A DNA stretch of 64,000 bases from Candidatus Microgenomatus sp. (GTDB lineage Bacteria; Patescibacteriota; Minisyncoccia; UBA6257; GWB1-50-10), in the NCBI GenBank assembly GCA_020724805.1, contig DYGI01000001.1, forward strand, positions 111,157 to 175,156. Reading direction: 5' to 3'. Under the pieces are notes generated by a model that was given only the letters and a program-made list of their open reading frames with translations, was not told the origin of the DNA and ran no database searches. The first letter of the stretch is position 1, and each line of letters opens with the position of its first letter. Shown one piece after another: positions 21,787-50,323 of the stretch. Both the position numbers and the translations under genes were made by a program.

Positions 21787-22301
21787 GGTTTTATGTTTGT
21801 AATGACGTTTTGGATGTCGTCGTGCGCTTGAAGCGCCTCCACCAAACGCGCGAGCGCTTCTCGCCCTTCTTGGCCTACCGGTTGAGGAAATTTCGGGGTA
21901 TTACCATCGAAGGCCCATCGCACGCTTCCTGGTTCCGCCCACTTTGCGCCGTGCTCCTTAAGAAGAGTTTTCACTTCCATAATAGTTCTATTTTTGCTGT
22001 CGGTAATCGCCTCAATGAGGAGCGCGACTCCTTCGGGGCCGTATGCTTCGAGAATGAGAGATTCCAGAAGTTCCTCTCCTTTTTCGCCGCGGTTAATAGC
22101 GCGTGCGATATTGTCGCTCGGCACATTGGACGCGCGCGCCTTTTCTATCGCGGTGCGGAGCGTGGGGTTGAAATCGGGGTTCGGCTCGCTTCGTGCGGAG
22201 GCGGTGATGGCGCGGAGAAGTTTTGAAAAGAGAGCGCCCCGTTTTTTATCCGTGGCCCCCTTGTGTTGTTTTATTTGCTTCCAATGACTGTGCCCAGCCA
22301 T
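21783..22301 (-). CDS. YebC/PmpR-family DNA-binding regulator (short form)
   Basis: MAGHSHWKQIKQHKG...KRGALFSKL N-terminus is diagnostic; 172 aa is shorter than the usual ~240 aa. Confidence 0.75.
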   Translation of the reverse strand: MAGHSHWKQIKQHKGATDKKRGALFSKLLRAITASARSEPNPDFNPTLRTAIEKARASNVPSDNIARAINRGEKGEELLESLILEAYGPEGVALLIEAITDSKNRTIMEVKTLLKEHGAKWAEPGSVRWAFDGNTPKFPQPVGQEGREALARLVEALQAHDDIQNVITNIKP

Positions 22302-22306
22302 GGTGC

Positions 22307-23449
22307 CTAAGAACGCTGTGCGATGAGCGGCAACGTTACGGTAAGTGTGGTGCCACGCTCGGCTTCCGAGGACACTTCGACGGTTCCGTCGTGAGCCTCA
22401 ATGATATTTTTTGCGATATAAAGACCAAGTCCACTTCCATTCGGTTCCACTTGTATGGCGTTTGAGCCACGCTCGAGTTTTTTGAAGAGTTTCCTCTCCT
22501 CTCCTCGGGGGATTCCGATGCCGGTATCGGCAATGACGATGGTGGCTCGAGAAGGATCGGCGGCGAGCTTCACCGTAACTGCGCCTCCCTTCACGTTGTA
22601 TCGAACCCCGTTATCGAGGAGGTTAAGAAGTGCAGTGCCGAGACGCGTGGGGTCTATATCTACCGGAAGTGAGGAAATCCCTTCATGGGTAAAAACCATA
22701 TTTACCCCGCGCTGCTCGGCGATGGGGGTTATGGTGCCGGTGAGTGTTTGAAGGAAAGATACAAGGTCGATACGCTCCCGCACTAGTCCAAACTTCCCAT
22801 CCTCGATTTTCGCCGCGTCAAGAAAATCGTTCACGATCTTAAGGCAGCGGTCGACGAGTGCGAGCGACTCTCCAAGAAGATTCGCGGTATTTTCGTTCCC
22901 TCCCTTCCCCATGCTTTCAAGAGACCACTTAAGTGCGGTGAGTGGCGTGCGAAGCTGATGCGCGGCAACGCCGACAAATTCGCTCTGCGAAGCGAGAACC
23001 TCCCTCGTTCGCGTTTCGTCCCGTACGATCTTCACGAACGCGGAAGGCGTTCCGGAGGAGTCCATGATGCGCATGGTATACGCGACCAGTTCGCGTCTCG
23101 GCTCTTCGAATGAAAGCGTTACCACTTGTGGCCACGTCCCGGTTTCCGAGCGCTCCACACTTGAAGGCGCGAGGGAAGGGAAAAGCGTTTGGGCGAGAAG
23201 GCGGTAGCGCGGTCGTTCCACGAGTCCCGGCTCGACCCTAATCCCCGAAAGTTCCTCTCGGCGGACTCCAAAAAGAGCCTCCGCCGCTTTATTGAATGAA
23301 AGGACGCTGAAATTGGCGTCGTAAATTATCACGGCATCGGGAAAGTCCCGGAATACCACCTCGAAAGACGTTTCTGCGAGCGGCAAAGCACCGTCTTTCC
23401 GTGAAGATTTTAGAGAGTCGAAAAGTGTATGGAAAAGGTTTCGCATCTG
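22307..23449 (-). CDS. sensor histidine kinase (PAS + HisKA + HATPase_c), no cognate regulator adjacent
   Basis: H-box AAHQLRTPLTAL, N-box LLNLLDNGVRY, G1/G2 boxes DTGIGIP and GSGLGLYIAK; start set to MRNLFHTL just after the polA stop. Confidence 0.8.
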   Translation of the reverse strand, partial: QMRNLFHTLFDSLKSSRKDGALPLAETSFEVVFRDFPDAVIIYDANFSVLSFNKAAEALFGVRREELSGIRVEPGLVERPRYRLLAQTLFPSLAPSSVERSETGTWPQVVTLSFEEPRRELVAYTMRIMDSSGTPSAFVKIVRDETRTREVLASQSEFVGVAAHQLRTPLTALKWSLESMGKGGNENTANLLGESLALVDRCLKIVNDFLDAAKIEDGKFGLVRERIDLVSFLQTLTGTITPIAEQRGVNMVFTHEGISSLPVDIDPTRLGTALLNLLDNGVRYNVKGGAVTVKLAADPSRATIVIADTGIGIPRGEERKLFKKLERGSNAIQVEPNGSGLGLYIAKNIIEAHDGTVEVSSEAERGTTLTVTLPLIAQRS

Positions 23450-23450
23450 A

Positions 23451-25919
23451 TTATGCAGCGTCCTGCCACGGTTCCATGCTCCCCCAATCGTCTCCCGTGC
23501 GGATGTCCACGCGGAGAGGCACCGAAAGGTCGACGACCGATTCCATAAGTTTTTGGATGGCGGGCGCCTGCGTGTGTAGCATACCGCGCGGCATCTCGAA
23601 GAGCAATTCATCGTGGACGGAGAGCACCATGCGAATATCGCGCGTCGTCGAGATGAGGTCGGCTATTCCGGCCATGGAAAGCTTCAGAATGTCGGCGCCA
23701 AGCGATTGAAGAGGCATATTAATGGCGGCGCGCTCCACTTCCCCCCAAGAACCTCGCTTCGAGGCCTCGCGGAACCATCGCCGCCTTCCGTGTTCGTTTG
23801 CCACATATCCGTTCGCTTTTGCGTCCTTCTTCACCCTTTCCTGCCACCGTCTTACCGAGGGGAATTCGTTGAAATACTCTTCCATGAACCGCTTGGCGTC
23901 GGCTAGTGAAAGACCGCTCGAGGCGGCGAATGCGCGAGCTCCCATTCCGTACACAATGCCAAAGTTCAATGTTTTTGCGGTGCGGCGCATGGGAGGAGTT
24001 ACTCCGGAAAGGGGAACGTGAAATACCTTTGCGGCGGTGAGCGCGTGAATATCCTTCCCTTCGCGGAACGCGGTGCGAAGTGCTTCGTCCTCGGAAACGT
24101 GCGCAAGGAGCCGAAGTTCAAGCTGTGAATAATCGAAGGATACGAGGGTAGTGCCGCGCGGAGCGGTGAATGCACAGCGAAGCAGTTTCGCCCATTTTGA
24201 CTCCTGTGGAATGTTCTGGAGGTTGGGGCGTTCAGAGGCGAGTCGCCCGGTTGCGGTACCTGTTTGAAGGAACGTGGTTCTCACTCGTCCGTCTTTTTCG
24301 ATGGCGGCCAAGAGAGGCTCAACAAAACTCGAGAATATCTTGAATGTTTCCCGGTATTCAAGGAGAAGAGGGACGATGGGGTGGGCGCTTTTGAGTTCGA
24401 GAAGAATATCCCGTCCGGTGCGCCGTTGGCCGGTGCGCGTTTTACGTTTTTTCTCGGTTCCAAGATTCAGGCGTTCAAAGAGAACTTCCGCGACCTGGCG
24501 CGGAGAATTTATATTAAAAGCTCCTCCCGCTTCTCTAGTGATACGCTCTTCGAGCGCGGCAAGTTCTTTGCGCATCTCCTGTGAGAGCGAGCGAAGGTGT
24601 GCCCGATCAACCGCGATACCGGTCCGTTCCATGAGCGCGAGGACCGGCACGAGCGGCATCTCGATTTTTTCGAATACGCCCATAAGTCCGTTCGTCGTAA
24701 GAGCATTGCGGAGCGCGAGATACAGCGCGCGGTCATCTTGGGCGCCGGAGCGGACAAAACGGGCAATAAGCGCCTCCTTGGAAAAATCTTGTTGATCTGG
24801 GTCGATAAGCCACCCGGCGATGAGGAGGTCAAAAAAAGGACCGGTGATCATTCCCGCCTTATCGCCCAAGTTTTTCAATATCGTTTTCCAATCGTACGCA
24901 ACCTTTTCTTTTTTACCCCGAAAATCTTTTAAGTGAAGAAGGGCGTCCTCCGCATCTTCAATAAATATCGAATCTTTGGGAACGGTATCGTCCGCGGGAA
25001 CATCCGCGCGAGGCGAAGGCATGTGGGAAAGGCCTTCAGGACGAGCGCGGAGACTTTCAAATCCCAATTGCGAGAAATATGCATTCACTTCGTTCTCGGG
25101 AATTCCGCGAAATGTTTCATGCGGTACATCGAGGGGTACCGCGGTATCGATGGTGGCGAGTTTTTTAGAAAAGCGAGCCTCCGTTTCGTGCGCTACCATG
25201 AGTTTTATAAAGCGTGCCTGAATACCGGCACGTTTCGCGCATTCCTCCACCCCGTCCTTTGCAAGCGCGCGGTAAATACCCTCGATGCTTCCAAAGCTGC
25301 GGACAAGCTTTAAGGCGCTGCCCTCGCCGACGCCGGGAACGCCTTTGATGTTGTCCGAGGCGTCGCCCATGATGCCCTTGAGATCGGGGATGTATTCGGG
25401 GCCGAATCCATACCGTTCTTTCACCGCGCGCTCGTCGTACACCATGGTTTCCGAAACCCCTTTTTTGAACGTTTCTACGCGCACGTACGGATCTTTCACG
25501 AGTTGGAGCGCGTCGAGGTCTCCGGTCAAAATAGTGACCTCGCGCCCGTCGCGAGCAAATTGCGTTGCAAGCGTGCCGATAATATCGTCGGCTTCCACCT
25601 TCGACATCTCAACGACCGGGATGCCGAACGTGCGGAAAAGTTCCCTCGCCTCAATAAGCTGGCTCACGAGCTCGTCGGGCGCTTTCGGACGATGCGCTTT
25701 GTAATCGGCGAATGAATCCTTGCGGTGAGTGGGCTCCGGACGGTCGAATGCCGCGTAGATGCCCGCAAATTCCCTCTCACGAAGAACCTTAAGGAGAATG
25801 CGCGAAAGGCCATAAAGCGCTCCGGTAGGTCGTCCGTCGGGCGCGGAGAGAGGAGGGAGCGCATGGAATGCCCTATGGATGAGCGCGTGGGCGTCTATAA
25901 GAAGTATGGTGTCGCGGGC
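23451..25919 (-). CDS. polA: DNA polymerase I (5'-3' exonuclease + polymerase domains)
   Basis: N-terminal FEN-like LLIDAHALIHRAFHA, C-terminal polymerase motifs (DYSQLELR, RRTAKTLNFGIVYG, VHDE); start trimmed to MARDT to avoid overlapping tsaE. Confidence 0.9.
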   Translation of the reverse strand, partial: ARDTILLIDAHALIHRAFHALPPLSAPDGRPTGALYGLSRILLKVLREREFAGIYAAFDRPEPTHRKDSFADYKAHRPKAPDELVSQLIEARELFRTFGIPVVEMSKVEADDIIGTLATQFARDGREVTILTGDLDALQLVKDPYVRVETFKKGVSETMVYDERAVKERYGFGPEYIPDLKGIMGDASDNIKGVPGVGEGSALKLVRSFGSIEGIYRALAKDGVEECAKRAGIQARFIKLMVAHETEARFSKKLATIDTAVPLDVPHETFRGIPENEVNAYFSQLGFESLRARPEGLSHMPSPRADVPADDTVPKDSIFIEDAEDALLHLKDFRGKKEKVAYDWKTILKNLGDKAGMITGPFFDLLIAGWLIDPDQQDFSKEALIARFVRSGAQDDRALYLALRNALTTNGLMGVFEKIEMPLVPVLALMERTGIAVDRAHLRSLSQEMRKELAALEERITREAGGAFNINSPRQVAEVLFERLNLGTEKKRKTRTGQRRTGRDILLELKSAHPIVPLLLEYRETFKIFSSFVEPLLAAIEKDGRVRTTFLQTGTATGRLASERPNLQNIPQESKWAKLLRCAFTAPRGTTLVSFDYSQLELRLLAHVSEDEALRTAFREGKDIHALTAAKVFHVPLSGVTPPMRRTAKTLNFGIVYGMGARAFAASSGLSLADAKRFMEEYFNEFPSVRRWQERVKKDAKANGYVANEHGRRRWFREASKRGSWGEVERAAINMPLQSLGADILKLSMAGIADLISTTRDIRMVLSVHDELLFEMPRGMLHTQAPAIQKLMESVVDLSVPLRVDIRTGDDWGSMEPWQDAA

Positions 25920-41941: not shown

Positions 41942-42469
41942 ATGACCGAGCGGCGCGAAATATCGGCGGGAATGATCATTTATCGGCGTACCCGCGAGGG
42001 ACCGAAATTCCTTTTGCTCTATAGCGGCGGCTCGTACTGGAATTTTCCGAAAGGAAAGCTCATCGAAGGGGAGCGTAATTTCAGAGCGGCGCTTCGGGAA
42101 GTGGAAGAGGAAACGGGCATTGCGCCGCGCGACCTCCAATTCAAAAGCCATTTTAAAGTGGAAGACCACTTCACGTACGTGCGGAACCGTGAGAAGATTA
42201 GAAAAACCGTTACCTACTATCTCGCGGAAACGCGCAAACACGAAGTGCGCCTCAAAATAGTTCCTCCCGGGCATCAAGGGGAGAGACACGAAGGGTACGG
42301 ATGGTTCACACTGCGGGACGCCTCGAAATTCCTTCGCACCCCGAATCTCAAACGACATCTGAAATATGCCTACGACACCATCGTTCGTCGAAAAAGTGCA
42401 CCGTCTCGCCCGCGCGATTCCCAGGGGGCGAGTCGCGACGTACGCGGACCTCGCCCGCAAGCTTCGTAA
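41942..42469 (+). CDS. NUDIX hydrolase
   Basis: NUDIX box GKLIEGERNFRAALREVEEETGI; the C-terminal ~35 aa probably read through the overlap with the next gene. Confidence 0.75.
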   Translation: MTERREISAGMIIYRRTREGPKFLLLYSGGSYWNFPKGKLIEGERNFRAALREVEEETGIAPRDLQFKSHFKVEDHFTYVRNREKIRKTVTYYLAETRKHEVRLKIVPPGHQGERHEGYGWFTLRDASKFLRTPNLKRHLKYAYDTIVRRKSAPSRPRDSQGASRDVRGPRPQAS

Positions 42470-42671
42470 CCCGCGCGCGGTCCGCGCGGTGGGGAACGCC
42501 CTGAATAAAAGTCCGGGGATGCCACGGGTTCCTTGTCATCGCGTGGTCCGTTCGGATGGCTCGGTGGGCGGTTTTGCCTCCGGCACGAAGGCGAAGGTGA
42601 AGCTTTTGATGAAAGAAGGGGTTCGCGTGGAAAAGGGGAAAGTGGACCTTGTGCGGTTCCGTATGAGGTAA
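42366..42671 (+). CDS. MGMT-family DNA-binding domain protein with active-site Cys
   Basis: 101 aa with PCHRVV motif and helix-turn-helix, equal to the C-terminal domain of O6-alkylguanine-DNA alkyltransferase. Confidence 0.7.
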   Translation: MPTTPSFVEKVHRLARAIPRGRVATYADLARKLRNPRAVRAVGNALNKSPGMPRVPCHRVVRSDGSVGGFASGTKAKVKLLMKEGVRVEKGKVDLVRFRMR

Positions 42672-43035
42672 AAAAAGAGTCCAGCGGGCGCTCGCATCGA
42701 GGGCCGTACGCTGGACTCGCAGGTTCTCCGCTTCTGCGGAGGCTCCGGATTGCTTCGGAGCGAAGCGTGTGGTGGAGAGGGCTTCGTTCCCCACGGACGA
42801 GGAAAAACGCTCTCCACGCGTTTGGGACGGCCGGCGATGAATGAGTGCCGGCGAGTCAAGGAACAATGCTCGGAGGACCGAGCGCTATTACGATATTCCC
42901 GCTCGCGTTATCCGTCAAACCAAAAGCCCCGAAGGGCTTCTATCGGTGCAGTCCAAAGGACTGCATTCAAACTGGTGCGCCCGGTGGGGCGCGCGTTATC
43001 GATATAACCGCCACGGTGCCGCAGGGCGGCCGGTT
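42672..43035. ncRNA. candidate structured non-coding RNA (identity and strand unresolved)
   Basis: 364-nt ORF-free interval in a tightly packed genome with many nested perfect hairpins (GAGTCCAGCG...CGCTGGACTC 10 bp; CTCCGC-TTCT-GCGGAG; GCTCCG...CGGAGC; TGCAGTCC-AAA-GGACTGCA; GCGCCC-GGTG-GGGCGC). Confidence 0.35.
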
Positions 43036-43380
43036 TTACCGCACTGTTGCTACGATTTTCTTGAATACCGCGGGCTCGTCTTTCGCGAGCATGGCGAGCA
43101 TTTTCCGGTCCAGCTTCACCCCCTTCTTTTTCATTGCCGAGATGAGCGTGCTGTACTTCATCCCCGCCTCGCGTGCTCCGGCGTTCACCCGCGTGTTCCA
43201 AAGCGCCCGGTATTCCCGCTTCTTCTCTTTCCGGCCCTTGAAGCTGCGGCTCCACGCGTGGAGGAGCGCTTCCTTTGCGAGGCGCTCTTTGGATCGGCGG
43301 CCCCACTTGAAACCTTTCGTGTGTTTCAGGACTCGCTCGCGTTTCTTGTGTGCAATTTTCCCACGTTTTACGCGCGTCAT
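43036..43380 (-). CDS. rplT: 50S ribosomal protein L20
   Basis: 114 aa, MTRVKRGKIAHKKRERVLKHTKGF N-terminus. Confidence 0.9.
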   Translation of the reverse strand: MTRVKRGKIAHKKRERVLKHTKGFKWGRRSKERLAKEALLHAWSRSFKGRKEKKREYRALWNTRVNAGAREAGMKYSTLISAMKKKGVKLDRKMLAMLAKDEPAVFKKIVATVR

Positions 43381-45423: not shown

Positions 45424-45742
45424 TGGTGGACATGGTCGGAGTCGAACCGACGTGTAACGCTTTCGGTAAAAAGCCCTCTACAAGCTTATTTCTCTTACGA
45501 GAACAAATGGTTCGTAATTTTGCGCTCCGCTACTGAACCGTCTTACGGAGCGCGAGCCTCATTTATTACACCGGAGAACCCCTATGAGGCGTCGGGAGCC
45601 GATGTCCTACTTACGCGAAAGCGTAAGCGGGAGCTGCAACTTTAGAGTTGGCAGTTTTAGGTTTGACCATGGATTTACGAGCGAATGGTCGGCTCGGCCT
45701 GCAAGCTCTCTACTTCACGCGCTAACAAGGCCCGTCATGCCC
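45424..45742 (-). ncRNA. ssrA: tmRNA (ssrA)
   Basis: 5' GGGCATG pairs with 3' CATGTCC-ACCA, including a G3:U70 wobble (AlaRS identity element); T-arm GTCGG-TTCGACT-CCGAC; PK1-like GGCCGAG...CTCGTAAA; internal tag ORF GCC AAC TCT AAA GTT GCA GCT CCC GCT TAC GCT TTC GCG TAA (ANSKVAAPAYAFA) at 45611-45652; immediately downstream of smpB. Confidence 0.8.
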
Positions 45743-45743
45743 G

Positions 45744-46184
45744 TCAGCTATGTGCGCGGCGAAGCTCTCGCTCCACATCACGCTTTTTAATGACCTCGCG
45801 CTTGTCGTGCTTCTTTCTCGCCTTTCCGAGTCCAAGCTCGATTTTCACCAGCGCGCGGTGAGTATACACCTTCAAGGGAATTAGCGTCAAACCACTTTCC
45901 AATTTACCCGTCAAGTAACTGATTTCTTGGCGCGAGAGGAGCAGTTTCCGCGTCCGCGACTCATCATACCCGTCGGGCGCGTTCCCAGGCTGGAATGAGT
46001 GAATAGAGGCCCCTACGAGGTATGCCTCGCCGCCCCGGATGACCGCGCGGGCGCCCGCGAGGTCCATCCGCCCGAGCTTCGCGGACTTCGTCTCGTGGCC
46101 CGTCAAAACCACGCCCGCGACATATGTTTCCTGTATGTCGTAGTCAAACCGCGCCTGCCGATTTTCTGATAACGTCGCCATCAC
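45744..46184 (-). CDS. smpB: SsrA-binding protein SmpB
   Basis: 146 aa; SmpB core motifs and a basic C-terminal tail. Confidence 0.9.
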   Translation of the reverse strand: MMATLSENRQARFDYDIQETYVAGVVLTGHETKSAKLGRMDLAGARAVIRGGEAYLVGASIHSFQPGNAPDGYDESRTRKLLLSRQEISYLTGKLESGLTLIPLKVYTHRALVKIELGLGKARKKHDKREVIKKRDVERELRRAHS

Positions 46185-47524: not shown

Positions 47525-47538
47525 AATTTCAATGGGAA

Positions 47539-47575
47539 CACCCGCCGAGAGGCGGGTGTTTATTTACCCCTCACC
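47539..47575 (+). terminator. hairpin + T-tract terminator module, copy 1
   Basis: CACCCGCC-GAGA-GGCGGGTG then TTTATTT then ACCCCTCACC. Confidence 0.45.
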
Positions 47576-48460: not shown

Positions 48461-48495
48461 CTCACGCGTAGTAAAAAGTAGCTACTAACAAATGT

Positions 48496-48528
48496 CCGCC
48501 TCTCGGCGGGTATTTATTTACCCCACCC
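48496..48528 (+). terminator. hairpin + T-tract terminator module, copy 2
   Basis: CCGCC-TCTC-GGCGG then GTATTTATTT then ACCCCACCC; same trailing motif as copy 1 with the loop sequence complemented. Confidence 0.45.
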
Positions 48529-48594: not shown

Positions 48595-50205
48595 TTGTGC
48601 GATAGAGTGAATGAAATGCTCCGTGACGAAGTTCTGAAACTCGTACAAAAACACGCTCCGAAGGGGACGGCGGTAACGCTTTCCGTACCCGAAGACGCGC
48701 GTCTTGGTCACTATTCCACGAATGTGGCGTTCGCGCTTTCCAAAATAGAGAAAAAATCACCTTTGGAAATTGCCGAACGTATTGCGTCTGACGTTACAAG
48801 TTCCAAGTCCCCAGCCATTAGTCGCGCAGTCGCTGCCGCTCCGGGATTCATCAACTTTTTCCTCGCGCCCAAAGCACTCCATGAGGAATTGAACGCTATC
48901 GCAAAAGCGAAGAAGAATTATGGCCGGTCAAAAGTTAAAAGTTCCAAGTTAAAGGTTCAAGTCGAGTTCGTCTCCGCAAACCCGACCGGACCCCTCACGC
49001 TCGCGAACGGCCGCGGTGGATTTTTGGGTGACGTACTCGCGAACGTCTTGGAAAACGCAGGCGCCGCGGTGGAGCGCGAATACTATGTGAACGACACGGG
49101 GAACCAGATCTTCACGCTCGGGAAATCGCTCCTCGCTTCGCTCGGCTTCGTGCCGGACGATGAAACTTTATACAAAGGCGAGTACGTCTCCGAATGGGCC
49201 GCGAAGCACAAGAAGGACGTGGAGAAGATGCGCAAAGACCCCGCGAAGCTCGGTGAAAAAGCGGCGGGCGATTTTTTGAAACTCATCAAACGCGCATTGG
49301 AAAAGGAAGCACATATCAAGTTTGACCGGTACACGTCCGAGAAAAAGAACATCCACGCAAAAGGGTACGTAAAGAAAGCGCTCGCACTTTTCAAGAAGAA
49401 AGGCGTGACGTACGAGAAAGAAGGCGCCACGTGGCTCAAAACCACCGCGGAAGGGGATGACAAGGACCGCGTGCTCGTGACGGGCGGCGGCTTCCCCACG
49501 TACTTCCTCGCGGACGCGGGCCACTACCTCGAAACCAAAGAGCGCGGGTTCAAGGCGAAGATAAATATCCTAGGCCCCGACCACTACGGATACGTGGCGC
49601 GCATCCAGGCCGCCGCGAAGCTCGTGGGCCTCGCAAACTCCAAGGTGCTCATCACGCAGGCGGTGCGCCTCATTCGGGGCGGCGCGGAGGTGAAGATGTC
49701 GAAGCGCAAGGGGAACTTCGTGACGTTTGAGGAAGTGGTGGAAGAGGTCGGGGCGGACGCCGCGCGCTTTTTCTTCCTCTCCGTGGCGCCCGAGTCCCAC
49801 ATGGACTTCAACCTGGACCTCGCAAAGGAACGCTCCAACAAAAACCCCGTCTACTACGCCCAGTACGCCTACGTCCGCGCGAAGGCGGTGGTCGCAAAAG
49901 CCGGGAAGATCGCGGGCAAGCCCGACCTCTCTTTACTCAATACCCCCGACGACGCGGCGCTCCTCTTCCAGCTCTCCCGCCTCCCCGAGGTTCTCGCCGA
50001 CGCCGCAAATGACTACGCCGTCCACCGGCTTACGCAATACGCCTCTACCCTCGCCCGCGCATTCCACACCTTCTACGAAAAGGAGCACGTGGTAGGCGAA
50101 GCCCCCGCGCTCGCCGCCGCACGGCTCGCGCTCGTAAAGGGGAGCATTATCGTGTTTGAAAACCTTTTCCGCATTCTCGGTATCAGCGCTCCTTCAAAAA
50201 TGTAA
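48595..50205 (+). CDS. argS: arginine--tRNA ligase
   Basis: Class I HIGH-type motif (SANPTGPLTLANGRGG), Add-1 N-terminal domain, C-terminal DALR anticodon-binding domain; 536 aa. Confidence 0.9.
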   Translation: MCDRVNEMLRDEVLKLVQKHAPKGTAVTLSVPEDARLGHYSTNVAFALSKIEKKSPLEIAERIASDVTSSKSPAISRAVAAAPGFINFFLAPKALHEELNAIAKAKKNYGRSKVKSSKLKVQVEFVSANPTGPLTLANGRGGFLGDVLANVLENAGAAVEREYYVNDTGNQIFTLGKSLLASLGFVPDDETLYKGEYVSEWAAKHKKDVEKMRKDPAKLGEKAAGDFLKLIKRALEKEAHIKFDRYTSEKKNIHAKGYVKKALALFKKKGVTYEKEGATWLKTTAEGDDKDRVLVTGGGFPTYFLADAGHYLETKERGFKAKINILGPDHYGYVARIQAAAKLVGLANSKVLITQAVRLIRGGAEVKMSKRKGNFVTFEEVVEEVGADAARFFFLSVAPESHMDFNLDLAKERSNKNPVYYAQYAYVRAKAVVAKAGKIAGKPDLSLLNTPDDAALLFQLSRLPEVLADAANDYAVHRLTQYASTLARAFHTFYEKEHVVGEAPALAAARLALVKGSIIVFENLFRILGISAPSKM

Positions 50206-50263: not shown

Positions 50264-50323
50264 AGGTGGGGAGTAGGATAGGGAGTGGGATAGGGAATGG
50301 GATAGGGAGTGGAATGGGGAGGG
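50264..50323 (+). repeat. tandem 12-nt G-rich repeat (about 5 copies)
   Basis: GGATAGGGAGTG / GGATAGGGAATG / GGATAGGGAGTG / GAATGGGGAGGG preceded by GTGGGGAGTAG; lies in the convergent intergenic region. Confidence 0.6.

Follow-up and report, generated by a model that had tools for sequence, protein, structure and literature searches.

A candidate lineage-restricted small RNA between the convergent rplT and MGMT-type genes of a Candidatus Microgenomatus genome

The operons clpB-MFS-NUDIX-MGMT and infC-rpmI-rplT of the genome studied here converge on an interval of 364 nt (42672-43035), and the locus raises the question of what occupies this space. The interval is bounded by the stop codons of an MGMT-type gene (42366-42671, plus strand; 101 aa; Pfam PF01035, 2e-28) and of rplT (43036-43380, minus strand). 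It is part of a stretch of 64,000 nt that was analysed as a whole and is referred to as the window. The neighbouring genes encode SmpB, Tmk, a YggT-like protein, IF3, L35, L20, MGMT, NUDIX, MFS and ClpB. The genomes of Patescibacteria are tiny and hold hardly any non-coding DNA, and the cells presumably live attached to hosts. The original prediction took the interval for an unannotated structured non-coding RNA. This is supported for a part of it, for which homologues, covarying helices, a conserved predicted promoter and an intrinsic terminator were found, and it does not hold for a single RNA of 364 nt. The conserved unit comprises about 210 nt on the minus strand (42884-42672), which is about 60% of the interval, and the remaining ~150 nt are made up of a terminator (T1) and a hairpin cluster specific to this genome. 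Judging from the sequence, we favour the reading that 42884-42672 is an independently transcribed, lineage-restricted accessory small RNA (sRNA) and that the rest of the gap consists of terminator hairpins. We assign this reading a probability of roughly 0.55.

Folding of the interval

The hairpin density ascribed to the interval was confirmed. All four stems that had been quoted for it were found in place, namely GAGTCCAGCG / CGCTGGACTC (42677-42686 / 42709-42718), CTCCGC-TTCT-GCGGAG (42726-42741), TGCAGTCC-AAA-GGACTGCA (42947-42965) and GCGCCC-GGTG-GGGCGC (42977-42992). Perfect hairpins of at least 6 bp numbered 10 in the interval, whereas the mean was 1.05 (SD 1.4) across the window and 0.76 in shuffles. 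The minimum free energy (MFE) of the whole interval was -178.2 kcal/mol on the plus strand (z -5.68) and -168.3 kcal/mol on the minus strand (z -5.78), and none of 100 dinucleotide shuffles folded as well. For GC correction, MFE was regressed on GC over 700 overlapping 364-nt intervals. The interval was the most negative of the 700 tested in the 64 kb, at -3.7 SD, and the tmRNA gene reached -3.3 SD on the same GC-corrected scale.

Structured intergenic regions are frequent in the 64-kb window. The interval had also been described as a gap that stands out. It is distinguished from the other gaps by its structure; by its length it is not, as apparent gaps of 200-580 nt occur elsewhere in the window according to a crude and unreliable ORF map. 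In this map, 22226-23451 (1224 nt, ~1.2 kb) appeared as a gap as well, which was rejected as an artefact of the ORF filter since a 434-aa histidine-kinase-like ORF fills the stretch. A replication terminus or dif site at the interval was likewise rejected, as gene orientation and GC skew across the window gave no support for it.

Parts and homologues of the candidate RNA

The comparative set consisted of 158 rplT loci, collected from genome and metagenome collections with rplT as anchor, and of 13 loci obtained by exact-protein look-up. The order rplT><MGMT-NUDIX-MFS-ClpB was conserved wherever contigs extended far enough. The 158 rplT-anchored loci supplied synteny and empty sites, with no carrier of the element among them. 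By its rplT protein, the window belongs to a Patescibacteria MAG, and Candidatus Brennerbacteria and Jorgensenbacteria are its nearest named relatives. Exact look-up with the window's L20 returned JGI Ga0246236_1000004 (571 kb) and GCA_020725245.1. Both are identical to the window over the region and thus offer no strain variation; the corresponding look-up with the window's MGMT protein gave no record.

Homologous intergenic regions were found in L167 (Logan SRR22388031), with an rplT-MGMT gap of 362 nt, and in L168 (JGI Ga0395806_0038828), with a gap of ~610 nt. Each of them aligns collinearly with the ~270 nt of the interval nearest to MGMT, which include T1, the promoter and the RNA, the RNA part accounting for ~215 nt. 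The homologues of the RNA lie at L168:2905-3178 (z -6.0) and L167:1001-1295 (z -2.1). In all three genomes the order is T1, promoter, 5' hairpin, CUCAUUCAY, a variable core, two hairpins (HPA and HPB) and a second terminator, T2. Locus L169 shows a terminator and then TTGACG, after which the contig ends. BLASTN (word size 7) of the interval against the related loci (158, later 175), the window, phages and plasmids gave no match beyond L167 and L168. Pattern-scan matches in the viral contigs L166 and L176-L180 were discarded as chance matches within phage coding sequence.

Read in the rplT sense, that is on the minus strand of the window, the interval would begin with ~95 nt of genome-specific hairpins, followed by T1, a sigma-70-type promoter and then the ~210-nt RNA ending at T2. 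Nothing corresponding to the ~95 nt adjoining the rplT stop (43035-42943) is present in L167, L168 or L169, where T1 directly follows the rplT stop. On the minus strand, the hairpin cluster found in this genome only (42969-43037) forms local hairpins at 43030-43018 and 42992-42977, and a third one (42965-42947) lies just outside it. On the plus strand, the ~95 nt fold into one imperfect hairpin of 64 nt (-35.7 kcal/mol) followed by UUUU. As T1 and T2 are without U-tracts on the plus strand, the cluster hairpin could terminate MGMT-sense transcripts before they become antisense to rplT, and this genome-specific cluster would shield rplT from antisense read-through. We only infer such a role, because the plus-strand fold of the cluster does not exceed shuffled sequences in stability (z -1.2).

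The intrinsic terminator of infC-rpmI-rplT, T1 (42915-42942, minus strand), is formed by UAGAAGCCC-UUCG-GGGCUUUUG with a C(UUCG)G tetraloop and a U-rich tail. It aligns in position with the terminator behind rplT in L168 and L169, and a weaker counterpart is present in L167. A sigma-70-type promoter is predicted at 42890-42918 (minus strand), with TTGACG at 42918-42913, a 17-nt spacer and TATCGT at 42895-42890. The -35 box is aligned and conserved, reading TTGACG in the window, L168 and L169 and TTGAAG in L167. The window, L167 and L168 also share a -10 box of the form TAnnnY, a spacer of 17-18 nt and a 6-nt distance to the 5' hairpin. When 180 loci and the window were scanned with the full pattern (TTGAMG, 17-18 nt, TAnnnY, 6 nt, GCTCGG), only these three matched. 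The -10 boxes themselves (TATCGT, TACGGT and TATGGC) bear poor resemblance to TATAAT, and the promoter scan overall gave no enrichment over shuffles. By prediction, the candidate has a promoter of its own, as would be expected of an independent sRNA.

We infer both the transcription of 42884-42672 and its exact 5' end. From this presumed start to the end of the T2 U-tract (42672-42884, minus strand, ~210 nt), the candidate has an MFE of -101.9 kcal/mol (z -5.4). Its predicted fold opens with a 5' hairpin, GCUCGG-UCCU-CCGAGC (42868-42883), the stem of which is invariant in the three members (GCUCGG-N4-5-CCGAGC). Hairpin HP2 (42826-42857) consists of GCCGGC-N11-GCCGGC and an outer GAC/GUC stem, and L167 has the same GCCGGC-N11-GCCGGC hairpin. 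The central domain (42772-42817) is an extended hairpin of 46 nt in the window and differs strongly among members; in L168 it comprises ~103 nt and is branched, and a 51-nt block common to L168 and L167 is missing from the window copy. Next come HPA, GCUCCG-AAGCAAUC-CGGAGC (42742-42761), with 6 bp and an A-rich loop of 8 nt, and HPB, CUCCGC-AGAA-GCGGAG (42726-42741), which is a fold prediction. In a manual alignment, the position of HPB is taken by a hairpin of different sequence in L168 (CCCGG-UAGU-CCGGG) and in L167. At the 3' end, the intrinsic terminator T2 (42670-42718) combines a 10-bp GC-rich outer stem, an inner GGC/GCC and CUCG/CGAG stem and a U7 tract (-28.3 kcal/mol, z -5.3). The U7 tract overlaps the MGMT stop codon. 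T2 provides the intrinsic terminator that is expected at the 3' end of an sRNA.

The 11-nt loop of HP2 displays a conserved motif, CUCAUUCAUC (42845-42836), which carries CUCAUUCAY, and the predicted folds of all three RNAs place CUCAUUCAY in a hairpin loop. On their rplT-sense strand, the three intergenic regions (~1.3 kb) contain TCATTCAY four times, always within CTCATTCAY; ~0.04 occurrences are expected from the background over 2.1 Mb (0.029 per kb per strand). Of possible functional sites in single-stranded RNA, CUCAUUCAY would be the most promising, as a base-pairing seed or a protein-binding site. The sRNA would act in trans via this motif, placed in a loop or linker, by base pairing or protein binding. 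A search for trans targets in the available sequence with the complement of the motif gave self-matches only.

Covariation had been proposed as a check of the original prediction, and the helices do covary across the three homologous intergenic regions. Given the three RNAs as aligned by MAFFT without supervision, RNAalifold recovered the 5' hairpin, HPA and T2. In the 27 pairs of the consensus structure, which was derived from the same three sequences on which it was tested, 93% of the cells pair, compared with 30-43% when the partners were slid by 1-3 columns. Double-sided changes were present in 10 pairs of the consensus and in 0-1 of the slid controls, and none of 500 shuffles reached the observed percentage of pairing or the covariation score. 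Covariation is clearest in HPA, which is paired at 6/6 positions in all three sequences, with five of the six pairs changed on both sides. T2 is 80% identical to L168:3128-3176 and shows double changes that preserve pairing (outer U-A to C-G, inner C-G to U-A). The covariation statistics are weak because the family has three full members only; the covarying structure, together with the lack of coding potential described below, lends modest support from three sequences to an sRNA. A covariance model of the 3' module (R1) scored 111.7 bits in the window and 120.8 bits in L168. In a search of ~1 Mb of loci and the window it detected no new member, and it did not recognise the 3' end of L167. The minus strand is indicated by the U-tracts after T1 and T2, by the promoter and by the G-U pairs of HPA in L168 and L167, which are A-C mismatches on the opposite strand.

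The interval could also contain no separate RNA gene and be a long hairpin-rich 3' UTR or terminator stack of the two convergent operons, which would stop transcription both ways and stabilise mRNA 3' ends. The genes are convergent, relatives have a single bidirectional terminator at the site, T1 and T2 are good minus-strand terminators, the plus-strand end carries a long hairpin and UUUU, and structured intergenic regions are common in the window, as stated above. However, one hairpin suffices in seven relatives, and the rplT unit is already ended by T1 ~100 nt past its stop. Moreover, a conserved -35/-10 pair follows T1 and precedes the conserved 5' hairpin at constant spacing, and HPA and HP2 are conserved and covarying although they have no U-tract. 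We regard a terminator stack as a serious, though unlikely, alternative.

As an sRNA, the candidate is of a known type, a promoter-to-terminator unit, and not a novel kind of system, and it matches no Rfam family. It resembles generic trans-acting sRNAs, which have their own sigma-70 promoter and a Rho-independent terminator, in being a ~210-nt promoter-to-terminator unit that lacks coding potential, begins with a hairpin, ends with a terminator hairpin and presents a short conserved motif in a loop. The narrow phylogenetic range and the gain and loss among relatives are further points of likeness. In contrast to generic sRNAs, it has no match to an Rfam family, its members are rather long (215-295 nt) with a variable core, and the host lineage is uncultivated. 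The literature searches turned up no account of sRNA families encoded on the chromosomes of Patescibacteria (CPR). If the sRNA reading is correct, it would provide a concrete, testable riboregulator in Patescibacteria, a conserved but dispensable RNA of 210-290 nt beside a core ribosomal-protein operon.

Distribution among relatives and variability of the junction

Among related Patescibacteria, the sRNA family would be either present or absent at this one site. In L001, L163, L164 and L165, whose L20 is 85-89% identical to that of the window, the rplT-MGMT gap is 30-45 nt long and holds one terminator hairpin each. The gaps of L172 and L175 are short as well, and that of L174 contains ~135 nt of unrelated sequence. 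Over these seven close relatives the gap ranges from 30 to 135 nt, mostly with a single terminator hairpin. By comparison with the short gaps of most close relatives, the 364-nt interval is extra DNA. In a distance tree of IF3+L35+L20 (277 aa), carriers (the window, L167, L168 and probably L169) are interspersed with non-carriers (L001, L163-L165 and L172), and L174 is without the element though its L20 is 94% identical to that of L168. The interspersed carriers and the absence from L174 indicate a dispensable family. Since the element is missing from all seven close relatives, it could also be decaying DNA. The patchy distribution may be due either to several losses or to transfer.

The rplT-MGMT site looks hypervariable. 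In L168, ~250 further non-coding nt follow the terminator of the sRNA homologue before MGMT is reached. This stretch (L168:3180-3460) contains another CUCAUUCAC and its own terminator hairpin, CCGGTTGCCAC.../...GTGGCAACCGG, with a U-tract abutting the MGMT stop, and it may represent another RNA unit, unrelated to the first, that occupies this hot spot. Right behind the rplT terminator, a strong promoter-like site is found, reading TTGACG-17-TACTAT in L170 (L170:2846-2974) and L171 and TTGACA-17/18-TATAT in L002 (L002:3839-3900). The non-coding sequence after these sites is unrelated to the window element in all three. The contigs of L169, L170, L171 and L173 end less than 130 nt after rplT. 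Extra DNA at the junction was observed in L002 (607 nt) and L004 (343 nt) and also in L170 and L174, with no detectable similarity to the window element. L002 and L004 share another element, which in L004 is split by a repeated 104-nt hairpin element.

A more speculative and rather unlikely proposal is that the junction serves as a hot spot at which near relatives acquire, exchange and lose whole promoter-RNA-terminator cassettes. The window genome, L167 and L168 would then hold one cassette family with recurring CUCAUUCAY, next to apparently unrelated units at the same site (the second unit of L168, L170, L002/L004), which are mostly led by TTGAC or ended by a terminator. If this were true, the cassettes would provide ultra-small, host-dependent bacteria with accessory riboregulators that can be exchanged, and the shared motif could be a seed or protein-binding site common to them. 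The hypervariable intergenic site could also be used for finding further RNAs.

A patchy presence among near relatives that does not follow the IF3+L35+L20 tree would also fit what is left of a small mobile element of non-autonomous type (MITE-, PATE- or REP-like), or foreign DNA in a hypervariable hot spot, without host function. The same applies to the unrelated extra DNA at the junction in L002, L004, L170, L174 and the second unit of L168, and to the 104-nt hairpin-rich element that L004 holds in two copies. REP/BIME clusters and MITE-like elements likewise consist of several GC-rich hairpins between convergent genes and are patchy among strains. In contrast to these, the hairpins of the interval are all mutually different, no second copy was found within the 64-kb window, and terminal repeats, inverted or direct, are absent, as are target duplications beyond two stop-codon contexts. 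Similarity to the L004 element, phages or plasmids was absent too. Divergence among the three copies is about that of the flanking proteins, with the helices kept by compensatory changes, which suggests vertical descent under constraint. A mobile-element remnant appears improbable to us.

The repeat of L004, a Jorgensenbacteria MAG, is GC-rich and hairpin-dense. Its two copies (L004:2778-2881 and L004:174-275) are 93% identical, inverted and within 6.6 kb; one splits the element shared with L002 and the other adjoins a masked run of N. It looks like a MITE-type repeat, and its similarity to the window interval was not above shuffles. A near-perfect GC palindrome of the GCCTGCCCGCCGGTTGGCGGGCAGGC type was observed within the MGMT coding region of L175 (L175:~800-830), with a partial copy in L174 (L174:~860-872). 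It is also present in the L004 gap (194-213), short matches occur in L111 and L127, and a related hairpin is part of the L004 repeat. In L175 and L174 the palindrome is flanked by the NALNK and PCHRV motifs, at a place where in-frame insertions are present in L003, L004 and L018, and it could be a hairpin element with coding sequence as its insertion site.

Known RNA families and coding content

On account of its size, the interval had been proposed to hold RNase P RNA, an SRP RNA, a 6S RNA, a riboswitch or a leader. RNase P RNA (bacterial types A and B), SRP RNA and 6S RNA are likewise hairpin-rich and of a similar size range, and a divergent housekeeping RNA of this kind, a riboswitch or a ribosomal-protein leader would account for both properties. 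These proposals found no support, as no Rfam 15 model matches even at E<=10. Rfam was searched in gathering mode over the whole window and 10 related loci, and in E<=10 mode over the interval and L002, L004, L167 and L168. Neither strand of the interval gave a match at gathering score. At E<=10, both strands of 42550-43150 gave two noise matches only, rli61 and Termite-flg, far under the gathering scores. The homologous loci L167 and L168 were without a match, and the related loci yielded nothing but tmRNA and tRNAs outside the interval and noise.

The RNase P RNA model (P4 helix, CR-I, CR-V) matched neither in the window at gathering score nor in 42550-43150 at E<=10, and the SRP (domain IV motif) and 6S models gave no match. 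Instead of the rod with a central bubble and paired ends that characterises 6S RNA, the predicted folds show local hairpins one after another, with the ends unpaired, and the folds of the window RNA, L167 and L168 contain no P1 or closing stem that pairs the 5' and 3' ends. The gene for RNase P RNA is essential and hence expected in each close relative. The element is missing from the syntenic site, and this site only is meant, in L001, L163, L164, L165, L172, L174 and L175. A housekeeping RNA is unlikely because of this absence from the same site in seven close relatives, one of them with an L20 94% identical to that of a carrier. For a riboswitch or leader, the interval lies on the wrong side, being 3' of the flanking gene on either strand, with no downstream gene to control. 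The L20 leader (Rfam L20_leader), the autoregulator of infC-rpmI-rplT, is also a structured RNA linked to the rplT operon, but the candidate is located downstream of rplT behind a terminator, has its own predicted promoter and does not match the model. We consider all these RNA classes highly improbable.

The interval had further been called free of ORFs, and no credible ORF was found in 42672-43035 by Pfam, HMMER or comparison of frames across the homologues. The sole ORF of at least 30 aa entirely within the interval is 42750-43007 (plus strand), with 85 aa and a TTG start. A GGAGG 7 nt upstream of this start would speak for a hidden small protein gene, or a pseudogene degraded from one. The 85-aa ORF has no Pfam match, though, and an exhaustive HMMER search against 1.84 billion protein representatives revealed no real homologue, only two low-complexity matches to proteins of 1,326 and 1,811 aa. 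The ORF is not conserved in L167 and L168. Peptide similarity among the homologues occurs in several frames simultaneously and only over T2; as it is not frame-specific, it does not indicate a conserved peptide. None of the homologous regions was found to encode a protein by Pfam, HMMER and frame comparison. ORFs overlapping the flanking genes gave no credible domain match in Pfam, and the public gene calls for the source genome have no gene in the interval. A protein gene or pseudogene is very hard to reconcile with these results.

Least probable, to the point of being scarcely credible, is a TIGR-type stem-loop guide-RNA array as in CPR bacteria and phages: such arrays consist of tandem, sequence-variable palindromic stems, are common in Patescibacteria and are missed by repeat finders, and TIGR-Tas is defined by an adjacent Nop-domain tas gene and by units with two 8-12-nt spacers flanked by box C/D motifs (PMC12045711), whereas the interval shares the tandem variable stems in a CPR genome but has no Nop-domain (Tas) gene within ~3 kb on either side, no regular, periodic unit length, and mostly loops of 3-11 nt, too short for two such spacers and box C/D motifs.

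The first 104 nt (42366-42469) of the MGMT-type ORF (42366-42671) are shared, in a different frame, with the 3' end of the NUDIX ORF that precedes it (41942-42469). Overlaps of 56-104 nt between NUDIX and MGMT ORFs were also seen in the relatives L001, L005, L006 and L015. The public calls for the source genome retain NUDIX and list no gene for MGMT, so that 566 nt behind rplT seem 'empty'. By calling nothing between rplT and NUDIX, the public annotation overlooks both the RNA candidate and the overlapping MGMT-type gene.

At gathering score, the Rfam 15 matches in the window were the tmRNA gene (45424-45742, minus strand) and two tRNAs. The tmRNA gene (112.7 bits) is located directly downstream of smpB. 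A promoter-like TTGACG-18-TATACT lies at 45861-45890 (minus strand), ~120 nt upstream of tmRNA and inside the 3' part of smpB; its -35 hexamer, TTGACG, is identical to that of the sRNA candidate. In a low-GC stretch, two terminator-like hairpins at 47537-47570 and 48487-48524, 954 nt apart, have a common tail (CCGCC-GAGA/TCTC-GGCGGGTRTTTATTTACCCC). Finally, a short tandem array of ~4 copies of the 12-nt unit GGGAGTRGGATA was observed at 50269-50316, between ORFs ending at 50205 and 50405.
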